Shown here: positions 3,001 to 6,000 of the stretch, piece by piece
How the letters are laid out: each line of letters begins with the position of its first letter
Position numbering within the stretch: position 1 is the first letter of the stretch
Source of the DNA: a virus
Taxonomy: Duplodnaviria; Heunggongvirae; Uroviricota; Caudoviricetes
Length of the DNA: 7,863 bases
Direction: 5' to 3' (one strand)
Virus record (IMG/VR): IMGVR_UViG_2713896897_000001
Coordinates: 1 to 7,863 of that record
Position numbers: made by a program

Positions 3001-6000
3001 TGAACTGTGGGGAGCATGGGTTTATTCAGGTCGTCTGGAAAAGCGCATGAGCAGCGTAATAGCGAAGTTCATGGAGAGCGTAGAGCCGGGAAGAGTTATG
3101 ACAAGGCCAATGTGTAATGATGATGATGGAATGTTGATTTCTCAGGTCGTCGATTCCGTCATGTACATTGACAAGAAAGCCTTTGGCATCCTCCTCAGCT
3201 ACTACGCTCATGGATCTTCCAAGCACGCCATTGCATCTTACTATCATCGTGTCGCAAGACCTCGCAAGATGTTATGCCGGGGCGGCGGGCGCATTCAAAA
3301 ACCATCGCTCGCAACCTGTCGCCGGGAAGTTGACGAAATCCTCAATGCCTCGTTGTTTATGATTTATCCGGCTCTGGATAGTGCGTTTAAAAACCGGAAA
3401 CGTGTAGAGAAAATTAAACATATAGCATAGAACGTGTTGACATCATTGAGCAAATGAGCAACACTATTCGCATAAGCTGCCGTTAGTGACTCTTAAGTTG
3501 CAGCGGTGGCTTTTTTTATTTGGGTCAGTCGTATAAAGGTCATTACGGAAGGCTGTTAACCTTCTTATCGTGGTTCGAGTCCACGCTGTCCCGCCAAACA
3601 TGCTGGTTTAGCTCCAATGGCAGAGCAGTCGCCTTGTAAGCGAATGGGTAGCGGTTCAAGTCCGTTAACCAGCACCATAACTGAGCCGTAGCCACTGGCT
3701 ATCCTGAATTCATCAGTGATAGTTATGCTGCGGCCTTCTTTTTTCCCCTTCCCAATATAAGAACTACGCAATCCGTTACTGGCGGAGGCGTTGCTATGAA
3801 ATCAATGGACAAAATCTCAACTGGCATTGCCTACGGAACATCTGCTGGTAGTGCGGGATACTGGTTTTTGCAGTGGTTGGATCAGGTCAGTCCGTCACAG
3901 TGGGCTGCGATTGGAGTGCTTGGAAGCCTTGTATTGGGCTTTCTCACCTATCTGACAAATCTGTACTTCAAAATCAGAGAAGACAGACGAAAGGCTGCGA
4001 GAGGTGAATAATGCCTCCATCATTACGAAAAGCCGTTGCTGCTGCTATTGGTGGCGGGGCTATTGCCATAGCATCTGTGTTAATCACGGGTCCAGGTGGT
4101 GATGATGGTCTGGAAGGTGCCAGCTACATACCATACAAAGATATTGTCGGTGTATGGACTGTATGTCACGGACACACCGGAAAAGACATCATACCAGGTA
4201 AAACGTATACCGAATCAGAATGCAAAGCCCTCCTGAATAAAGACCTTGCCACGGTCGCCAGACAAATTAACCCATACATCAAAGTCGATATACCGGAAAC
4301 AACGCGCGGCGCTCTTTACTCGTTCGTTTACAACGTGGGCGCTGGCAATTTCAGAACATCGACGCTTCTTCGCAAAATAAACCAGGGCGATATCAAAGGC
4401 GCATGTGATCAGCTACGGCGCTGGACATACGCTGGCGGTAAGCAATGGAAAGGGCTGATGACTCGCCGCGAGATTGAGCGTGAAGTCTGTTTGTGGGGGC
4501 AACAATGAGCAGGGTAACCGTTATTATCTCCGCTCTGGTTATCTGCATTATCGCCTGCCTGTCATGGGCTGTTAATCATTACCGTGATAACGCCATCGCC
4601 TACAAAGAGCAGCGCGATAAAGCCACATCCATCATCGCTGATATGCAGAAGCGGCAACGTGATGTAGCAGAACTTGACGCCAGATACACAAAGGAGCTTG
4701 CTGATGCTAATGCGACTATCGAAAGTCTCCGTGCTGATGTTTCTGCTGGGCGTAAGCGCCTGCAAGTCTCCGCCACCTGTGCAAAGTCAACGACCGGAGC
4801 CAGCAGCATGGGCGATGGAGAAAGCCCAGGACTTACAGCAGATGCTGAACTCAATTATTACCGTCTCCGAGGTGGAATCGACAAGATAACCGCGCAGGTT
4901 AACTACCTGCAGGAATACATCAGGACGCAGTGCTTAAAATAATTTTAATTTCACTGAAATTTAACAAGTGACTTTCAGGAAAATGCCTCGCAGATGCGGG
5001 GCATTTTTGTACCGGTATTTCACCGCGCACCGCAGCGCACAATAAACACCGAACCTGACCCTTTGGAATGGGCCTTTGAGGATACCAGTTAGTGCTGGCG
5101 AGCCTCGGTGGGCTGGTTTCCTGTGCGGCAAAGGTTCATTTCAAAGAAGCAGGCAACGCCATGAATGAATTAATTGCGAATCATGACTTCGACTTTCGCC
5201 AGTTAGTTACCGCAGCAGAAGGTCAACCGGTAACTGACACCTTCCAGATTGCCAGGGCATTTGGTAAACGCCATCAGCATGTGATTAGGGCTATTAAATG
5301 TTTGAGATGTTCTGAGGAATTCTCGACAACCCATTTTTGGGCCGTCGAGAAAATCAATGACTTAGGTATTTTTGACAAGAAACAGATTTACTACCGCATG
5401 GACTTTAGTGGCTTCGTTATGCTGGTTATGGGATTTAACGGGGCAAAAGCCGATGCTGTTAAAGAAGCCTATATCAATGCGTTTAACTGGATGTCAGCAG
5501 AACTCCGTAAGTACAGCGAAAGTTATGAAGCAGAACGTAACGCCGTAATGCTGGAGTACATGAAAGAGAAGGATGTCGCCAGCATGTCAGGCCGTCTGCT
5601 CAATCGCTGGGGGAGAACGAAAAAACCTCAATTGCTTGCAAAGCTGGAACGTCTGGAGAGACAGGGACAGTTTTTATTACCGGGATTCGATAAAGGTATT
5701 CAAGCCTGACACATTATGCGCTGTATCGTCGCCGTATTCCCGCATTAACCATGACCGTAGCCCGACGGGGAATTCCTTCTGCGTGAGTGTGCGGGAATAA
5801 TCAAAAACGATGCACACCGGGTTTTACTGTGCTGACAGACGCAGGGTTACCCTCATAGTCGCTTTTCCGGTGCGATGGTGGAAGAAACAGGGATGTTCAT
5901 CCATCATCACTTTGGATTGATGTATATGCTCTCTTTTCTGACGTTAGTCTCCGACGGCAGGCTTCAATGACCCAGGCTGAGAAATTCCTGGACCCTTTTT

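Follow-up and report, generated by a model that had tools for sequence, protein, structure and literature searches.

Why do temperate enterobacterial phages carry a gene for tRNA-Asn(GUU) next to one for tRNA-Thr(UGU)? Such a tandem lies between a late antiterminator gene and the lysis genes in the stretch of DNA analysed here, positions 1 to 7,863 of the IMG/VR virus record IMGVR_UViG_2713896897_000001 (hereafter the window, 7,863 bp in full). Such a pair is not new, being annotated in phage 21, Sf6, SfI, BTP1 and many P22-like Salmonella phages, and the reason for carrying it, described as ‘not clear' for tRNA-Asn in 2013, now has a concrete and testable answer. The Toprim tRNases with which P2 prophages and P4 satellites attack lambdoid phages have both isoacceptors among their substrates, and one of the two phage tRNAs, tRNA-Thr, has already been demonstrated to act as a resistant replacement. 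The best explanation of the locus, to which we assign a probability of about 0.6, is that the phage tRNA pair provides late-expressed, nuclease-resistant replacements for the host tRNAs. An original prediction, made from the sequence of the window before this analysis, had described the two tRNA genes and their late position; it missed that both isoacceptors are targets of Toprim anticodon-stem nucleases, and that the tRNA-Thr of phage 21 resists Old and rescues cells.

Two complete tRNA genes

In the whole window (7,863 bp) ARAGORN detects two tRNA genes and no more, and its calls and those of Rfam agree with the identities, anticodons and coordinates (3522-3677) originally proposed. The elements of the pair are as follows.

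3522-3596, + strand: tRNA-Asn(GUU), 75 nt, CCA encoded, G73; ARAGORN (anticodon gtt) and Rfam RF00005
3597-3601, + strand: inter-tRNA spacer AACAT, 5 nt, from the sequence
3602-3677, + strand: tRNA-Thr(UGU), 76 nt, CCA encoded, A73; ARAGORN (anticodon tgt) and Rfam RF00005

The RF00005 scores are 55.3 bits (E 4e-10) for tRNA-Asn and 59.0 bits (E 4e-11) for tRNA-Thr, the gathering score of the family being 29 bits. The elements read by threonyl-tRNA synthetase, the exact positions of which are established knowledge, are all present in the window tRNA-Thr (G1-C72, C2-G71, the UGU anticodon and A73) and are the same in host thrU. Likewise, the window tRNA-Asn contains all of G34-U35-U36 and G73, the identity elements of asparaginyl-tRNA synthetase (GUU anticodon plus G73; PMC9976931). 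The tRNA-Asn has a canonical T-loop and an anticodon stem of five standard pairs, GAAGG/CCUUC, while in the anticodon stem of tRNA-Thr, GUCGC/GCGAA, a G27:A43 mismatch at the base leaves four pairs. The U4:U69 mismatch that had been noticed in the acceptor stem of tRNA-Asn is real; a second non-standard pair in this tRNA, U13:U22 in the D-stem, and the G27:A43 of tRNA-Thr had been passed over. The stem mismatches of both tRNAs are kept across copies and hence are tolerated features rather than signs of decay. As part of the explanation that we favour, both are probably functional phage tRNA genes. For tRNA-Thr function is implied by the published rescue of ACA decoding by the phage 21 allele, from which the window allele is one base away.

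Anticodon stems without the motifs of the nuclease targets

P2 Old, the classic anti-lambda exclusion protein, targets the anticodon stem of tRNA-Thr(UGU); it makes its lethal cuts in host thrU at paired CNG motifs, one after nt 28 and the other after nt 40 (Govande et al. 2025, PMC12445682). In the cleavage time course reported for Old, thrU was cut fastest, tRNA-Asn(GUU) being among the three comparison tRNAs (PMC12445682). The tRNA-Thr of phage 21, ‘tRNAThr21', which combines a shortened anticodon stem with the changes C28U/G42A, gives protection to Old+Gam cells and resists cleavage at site 1 almost completely (PMC12445682). The second Toprim nuclease considered here, PARIS AriB, cuts host tRNA-Asn(GUU) between positions 40 and 41, beside U36AAU39, and the substitution U39A in tRNA-Lys abolishes cleavage by AriB (Belukhina et al. 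2025, PMC12409363). The Lys, Thr and Asn variants of phage T5 jointly neutralise PARIS (Belukhina et al., PMC12409363), a system that restricts lambda too (PMC9122126). The UGU and GUU anticodons of the window tRNAs are those of the host tRNAs targeted by these nucleases (PMC12445682, PMC12409363).

The anticodon arms were compared in a numbering that reproduces the published U36AAACC41 of T5 tRNA-Lys.

Host thrU: positions 27-31/39-43 ACUGA/UCAGU; 28-30 CUG; 40-42 CAG; position 39 U; 5 pairs
Window tRNA-Thr: positions 27-31/39-43 GUCGC/GCGAA; 28-30 UCG; 40-42 CGA; position 39 G; G27:A43, 4 pairs
Host asnT: positions 27-31/39-43 GCGGA/UCCGU; 28-30 CGG; 40-42 CCG; position 39 U; 5 pairs
Window tRNA-Asn: positions 27-31/39-43 GAAGG/CCUUC; 28-30 AAG; 40-42 CUU; position 39 C; 5 pairs

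Both window tRNAs are devoid of the CNG motifs and of the U39 found in their host counterparts, and the seven-base anticodon loops of both are identical to those of the host (CUGUUAA in tRNA-Asn). Across the AriB site (positions 36-41) tRNA-Thr reads UAAGCG in the window versus UAAUCA in the host, and tRNA-Asn UAACCU versus UAAUCC. The anticodon arm of the window tRNA-Thr is that of the phage 21 tRNA-Thr. A counter-defence role of tRNA-Thr is thus well supported, by the literature for the phage 21 allele and, as far as the sequence can indicate, for the window copy also; for tRNA-Asn the role is a prediction. It was considered whether tRNA-Asn might instead counter colicin E5, and this candidate was set aside, as E5 cuts within the anticodon loop and the phage loop is identical to that of the host.

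Phage 21 (locus L131) encodes a lambda-like Gam and Ral (5592-5888 and 6863-7001). Its Gam is a RecBCD inhibitor and the trigger of P2 Old, and phage 21 thus has both the trigger and the resistant tRNA-Thr.

In the mechanism that we propose, both tRNAs would be transcribed from PR', in the late-operon leader of the phage 21-like prophage, with Q-modified polymerase reading through tR' to reach them, and RNase P and 3' processing enzymes would cut them out of the late transcript. During growth of the lambdoid phage, Toprim tRNases of P2 prophages or P4 satellites (P2 Old, PARIS AriB) would cut the anticodon stems of the host counterparts. Since the host anticodon loops and the identity elements for the synthetases are preserved in the phage copies, decoding and charging would be unchanged; their anticodon stems are rewritten, and the nuclease motifs are gone. 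The Thr copy would also add decoding capacity for ACA, a benefit that overlaps with nuclease resistance.

Probable transcription from the late promoter

Judged by its match to phage 21 (OL657228), which is 98.5% identical over 401 bp (3400-3800), the window can be identified as the late control region of a lambdoid prophage resembling phage 21. The control elements around the tRNA pair are listed below, the coordinates of PR', the Q-binding element and tR' having been carried over from the phage 21 annotation with an offset of 101.

2942-3430, + strand: Q21-type late antiterminator gene; 159/162 amino acids shared with phage 21 Q, an annotated antiterminator (OL657228)
3437-3472, + strand: PR' late promoter; -35 TTGACA at 3437-3442, -10 at 3460-3465, start site 3472
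3445-3460, + strand: Q-binding element, ATTGAGCA/AATGAGCA; same sequence as the annotated phage 21 element
3474-3521, + strand: tR' intrinsic terminator; hairpin 3474-3512, then U-tract; annotated in phage 21 and Sf6
3685-3744, + strand: second strong hairpin (3685-3734) plus CUUCUUUUUU; terminator-like element ending the cassette

Between 3431 and 3525 the window departs from phage 21 at a single base, G3503 for A, which changes a U-A pair of the tR' stem to U-G; the hairpin (3474-3512) has a predicted folding energy of -19.8 kcal/mol (z = -4.8). The tRNA-Asn gene starts one base past the U-tract of tR', and there is consequently no room for a separate tRNA promoter. A consensus promoter scan of 2800-4300 revealed no independent tRNA promoter but, as it also missed the known PR', this result is weak; a separate promoter for the pair is rejected mainly because tRNA-Asn adjoins the U-tract. 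Expression of the tRNAs by Q-dependent read-through from PR' is, given this arrangement, a sound inference. The earlier proposal that the pair lies distal to a tR'-like terminator and before the lysis genes is borne out by the phage 21-type PR', Q-binding element and tR' upstream and the S21-R21-Rz genes downstream; the proposal of late expression under Q antitermination probably holds.

The second hairpin folds more strongly in prediction (-27.7 kcal/mol, z = -5.8) and is kept in all 92 phage-21-type cassettes, yet a U-tract follows it in only 24, which are those with the window-type downstream sequence. It is without annotation in the phage 21 record, while the phage L record has a terminator at the equivalent place. 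The proposal that the hairpin is a general terminator is upheld only in part, given that 24/92 cassettes have the U-tract. As the hairpin is universal but the U-tract is rare, the element may serve chiefly in processing or stability, with termination as a second role in the window.

Codon supply fits tRNA-Thr better than tRNA-Asn

It could be argued that the tRNAs do no more than raise the supply of isoacceptors for late-gene codons, a function unrelated to defence. We consider that codon supplementation alone is unlikely to account for the pair, although part of the evidence fits it well. With their place in the late leader, the tRNAs would be made at the time when late genes are translated, and a comparison of 23 annotated phage 21 late genes with 37 E. 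coli K-12 genes revealed a clear bias in one codon. ACA occurs 12.6 times per 1000 codons in the phage 21 late genes (about 2.2-fold enriched; odds ratio 2.25, p = 2e-7) and 15.9 times in the open reading frames (ORFs) of the window (odds ratio 2.85, p = 5e-5), versus 5.7 in the K-12 sample. Since ACA is about twice as frequent in late genes as in host genes, and only tRNA-Thr(UGU) reads this codon, the Thr copy would add decoding capacity. The same does not apply to Asn codons, which are not enriched in the phage 21 late genes relative to the K-12 sample (37.7 versus 36.0 per 1000, p = 0.54; 45.2 in the window ORFs), and the share of AAC among them is lower than in the host (54% in the phage 21 late genes and 48% in the window ORFs, versus 66% in the K-12 sample). 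The suggestion in the original prediction that the pair supplements late-gene codons is therefore valid for Thr(UGU) but not for Asn. This matches the SfI paper (2013), in which ACA usage was 17.3% versus 7.1% and the significance of tRNA-Asn was termed ‘not clear' by the authors; the same study located the tRNA tandem downstream of Q and named Sf6, ST64T, PS3 and phage 21 as phages with one or both of the genes. In favour of a supply role for tRNA-Asn is the phage L paper, which reported that 24/25 Asn codons of the capsid gene are AAC.

Further observations are difficult to accommodate within a role in codon supply alone. The anticodon stems are the most rewritten parts of the two tRNAs (2/10 and 3/10 positions kept), in contrast to the host-identical loops, a pattern that supplementation leaves unexplained. 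According to their annotations, the tail genes of lambda are near-identical to those of phage 21, and lambda is not known to carry tRNA genes; supplementation thus cannot be essential. The experimental resistance of tRNAThr21 to Old is also left without explanation, and host thrU supplied on a plasmid was reported to restore nothing in Old+ cells.

A conserved cassette that appears to move as a unit

At megablast level 94 phage records match the cassette, and matches occur in 995 of 5,426 complete E. coli genomes, with coverage of 80% or more of the 273-bp cassette in 344 of them. When viral contigs were scanned for the tRNA-Asn anticodon arm, at least 119 loci emerged. Among the matches listed for 109 loci that span the region, the cassette (~3471-3740) is shared by 77-107, Q by ~33 and the S21 region by ~17. 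The cassette is thus shared far beyond the flanking Q and S21 genes and behaves as a mosaic module of its own.

The tRNA-Asn gene is identical (75/75) in the window, phage 21, Sf6 and L. The tRNA-Thr matches that of phage 21 at 75/76 positions, the sole difference being C for U at D-loop position 20 (C3621 for T). This C20 allele was found in E. coli prophages from chicken, with an identical copy in strain Z1323CEC0007, and in none of the 114 viral contig copies among the matches listed. In 48 distinct collinear cassettes the nucleotide diversity (pi) is 0.007 for tRNA-Asn, 0.013 for tRNA-Thr and 0.007 for tR', compared with 0.068 for the trailer and hairpin and 0.109 for the 5-nt spacer, the most variable segment. 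The tRNA genes are 5-10 times less diverse than the trailer, and both appear to be under purifying selection. The copies being ~98% identical, their substitutions were classified by script as pair-keeping or pair-breaking. All six stem substitutions in tRNA-Thr keep pairing, and three of them are compensatory double changes, which affect two pairs (G5-C68, changed to U-A, and A49-U65, changed to G-C).

These data bear on a further possibility, that only tRNA-Thr matters and that tRNA-Asn is a weakened or non-functional passenger, linked to it within a small mosaic cassette. The two non-standard pairs (U4:U69 and U13:U22) and the lack of Asn codon enrichment are consistent with this view. No compensatory stem changes were seen in tRNA-Asn, and two singleton variants break a pair. 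Moreover, the gene is lost or fused in some phages, with a 24-nt remnant in the Stx2c phage 1717 and an Asn::Gly fusion in the viral loci L038 and L041. Conservation, however, makes a passenger improbable. The diversity of tRNA-Asn equals that of tR' and is below that of tRNA-Thr, in contrast to an about 10-fold higher variability of the spacer and trailer next to it; the gene is the same in three phages and is retained in phage L, in which the second tRNA has changed. Its Rfam score is far over the threshold, and the canonical T-loop, encoded CCA, G73 and host-identical anticodon loop are all in place. The mismatches themselves do not drift: among the viral copies listed, U4:U69 is present in 106/113 (the rest comprising five U:C, one G:U and one U:G) and U13:U22 in 113/113. 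The reading of U4:U69 as the mark of a degraded copy is rejected on these grounds.

The objection that the original prediction had raised against itself, that the genes are host tRNA fragments or copies left by integration or excision, has virtually no chance of being correct: many temperate phages do integrate into tRNA genes, and the rare cassette variant L106 has a host-identical thrU 3' part, but a scar of this kind is refuted by the low identity to the host genes (48/76, 63%, to asnT and 54/76, 71%, to thrU), by full-length cloverleaves with all four arms, by a location in the late-operon leader between Q and S rather than at a prophage end, and by the presence of the genes in the genomes that phage 21, Sf6 and SfI package.

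Nine viral loci (L011, L032, L077, L078, L088, L095, L096, L106 and L108) contain a third form of the cassette, in the order Asn, a chimeric Thr (the first 26 nt phage-type, the remaining 3' two-thirds thrU-like) and Gly(UCC). In 8/9 of the chimeric genes G42U and U43C break two anticodon-stem pairs, while the arm of L106 is host-identical. In these eight thrU-like Thr copies, which belong to an independent cassette form, the two changes also destroy the site 2 CNG motif. The Asn::Gly fusion of L038 and L041 runs across the conserved T-loop. The DE3 prophage of E. coli Origami2(DE3), a strain in common laboratory use for expression (locus L129, 2550-2705), has the phage 21 alleles of both tRNAs, flanked by a Q21-type gene and S21-type lysis genes.

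How far does the evidence reach?

It should be emphasized that several observations weigh against the view that the pair supplies nuclease-resistant replacements. The ACA enrichment is explained just as well by plain codon supplementation. Gam is an early product, and the tRNAs are late ones. Most tRNAs lack a CNG motif or U39; as absence of the motifs is the default, their loss in a tRNA-Asn that is 63% identical to the host gene is weak evidence taken alone. The anticodon stem of tRNA-Asn has its full five pairs and is not shortened, while Old resistance in tRNA-Thr needed the motif change and the shortening of the stem together (PMC12445682), and the literature searched yielded no experiment on a tRNA-Asn of the phage 21 type. 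With respect to PARIS, the T5 tRNA-Lys was required for neutralisation (Belukhina et al., PMC12409363). The cassette is without a tRNA-Lys(UUU), the prime AriB target, and the pair alone thus probably does not defeat PARIS. A 2026 preprint reports that rescue from Old by viral Thr(UGU) tRNAs was seen for HK97, though not for lambda. The published resistance and rescue are, furthermore, those of the phage 21 allele, while the window tRNA-Thr has C20. Finally, the pattern is not universal, as in phage P1 both CNG motifs are still present in tRNA-Thr, and UAAUCA is still present in tRNA-Asn.

A stronger version of the proposal is that tRNA-Asn is a second dedicated escape tRNA, and that the ~270-bp cassette is a portable two-component antidote to the Toprim nucleases of P2 and P4. 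We view this extension as tentative, with somewhat less than an even chance of being correct. Here, Thr(UGU) would be the primary target of Old, AriB would target Thr(UGU) and Asn(GUU) alongside Lys(UUU), and the cassette would move as a unit among lambdoid and P22-like phages. The U4:U69 and U13:U22 pairs could be part of the escape, as AriB reportedly needs contacts outside the anticodon arm. With respect to timing, a constitutive PR' and a leaky tR', with transcription stopped at the second hairpin, could give low expression of the tRNAs in the lysogen without the lysis genes. If the replacement role is true for tRNA-Asn as well as tRNA-Thr, this small cassette would represent an anti-defence module of wide distribution in the conflict between prophages.

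Flanking genes

Downstream of the cassette the window contains the lysis genes, and the candidate Rz1-like ORF was judged by inspection only.

3796-4011, + strand: S21 pinholin/antiholin gene; 71/71 amino acids identical to phage 21 S
4011-4508, + strand: R21 signal-anchor-release (SAR) endolysin gene; 156/165 amino acids identical to phage 21 R
4493-4942, + strand: Rz i-spanin gene; 84/153 identical to phage 21 Rz
4704-4889, + strand: candidate Rz1-like ORF inside Rz; putative lipoprotein o-spanin

At the other end of the window, positions 564-763 contain Rfam matches to c4-a1b1 (564-616), isrK (577-653) and C4 antisense RNA (680-763), and an antirepressor-like ORF (816-1496) lies directly downstream of these. 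The region 564-1496 looks like a P1/P7-type ant module controlled by antisense RNA.

Comparison with known systems

The closest relative is phage 21 (OL657228, CPT_21_64 and CPT_21_65), which has the same order of PR', Q-binding element, tR', tRNA-Asn, 5 nt, tRNA-Thr, hairpin and S21. The products and genes compared are identical or nearly so (tRNA-Asn 75/75, tRNA-Thr 75/76, Q 159/162, S21 71/71), and the window differs by U20C in the D-loop of tRNA-Thr and by G3503 for A in the tR' stem. Upstream of Q the two diverge, the window having an ant/roi antirepressor module where phage 21 has nin genes. In Sf6, SfI, BTP1 and other P22-like phages the same ~270-bp cassette (3471-3740) recurs at ~98% identity, with qut and tR' annotated, and the Sf6 annotation describes the tRNA pair as ‘similar to phage 21'. 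These phages, however, have different Q alleles upstream and lambda-type S/R genes downstream, and most of them lack the U-tract after the second hairpin. Phage L (locus L130, 481-552) represents a further variation, its second tRNA being annotated as Leu(TAA). This gene is 61/76 identical to tRNA-Thr, with a near-identical Thr-type acceptor stem (one substitution) and a different anticodon arm, which suggests descent from the Thr gene and a switch of anticodon.

The slot occupied by the pair had been equated with that of ileZ-argN-argO in Shiga toxin (Stx) phages, which lies between Q/PR'/tR' and the first late genes, and the Stx2c phage 1717 (locus L124) confirms the equivalence. Phage 1717 has the same Q21, PR' and tR' as the window, but after its Q21-type gene come tRNA-Met(CAT, ileZ-type), tRNA-Arg(TCG) and tRNA-Arg(TCT) (~6942-7185), followed by stx2c. 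Only the first ~24 nt of tRNA-Asn are left (~6721-6744), and these run into unrelated sequence, so that the mosaic joint lies within the tRNA-Asn gene. The contents of the two cassettes differ, Asn and Thr with no stx in the window versus Met/Ile-type CAU, Arg UCG and Arg UCU in the Stx phages. The Stx tRNA genes begin ~200 nt from tR', and they are reportedly driven by a promoter of their own, located by mapping to the interval from tR' to stx (PMC7547250). In the window, where tRNA-Asn directly follows the U-tract of tR', a dedicated promoter in this position is not possible.

Two more distant phages carry tRNAs with the same anticodons. The Thr and Asn variants of T5 resemble those of the window in having host-like loops and in the loss of U39 and both CNG motifs (PMC12409363), although the T5 and window tRNAs are identical at only 49/76 and 48/78 positions. 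T5 is virulent and has a set of more than 20 tRNAs, including the essential tRNA-Lys(UUU) variant that the window cassette lacks. In phage P1 (locus L128, 1425-1578), an unrelated temperate coliphage that also has a tRNA-Ile CAU, Asn(GUU) and Thr(UGU) are adjacent and in the same order as in the window. The P1 tandem, however, is located in the C1-controlled ban operon rather than in a late leader, and its genes are identical to those of the window at 62/76 positions for Thr and 45/76 for Asn.

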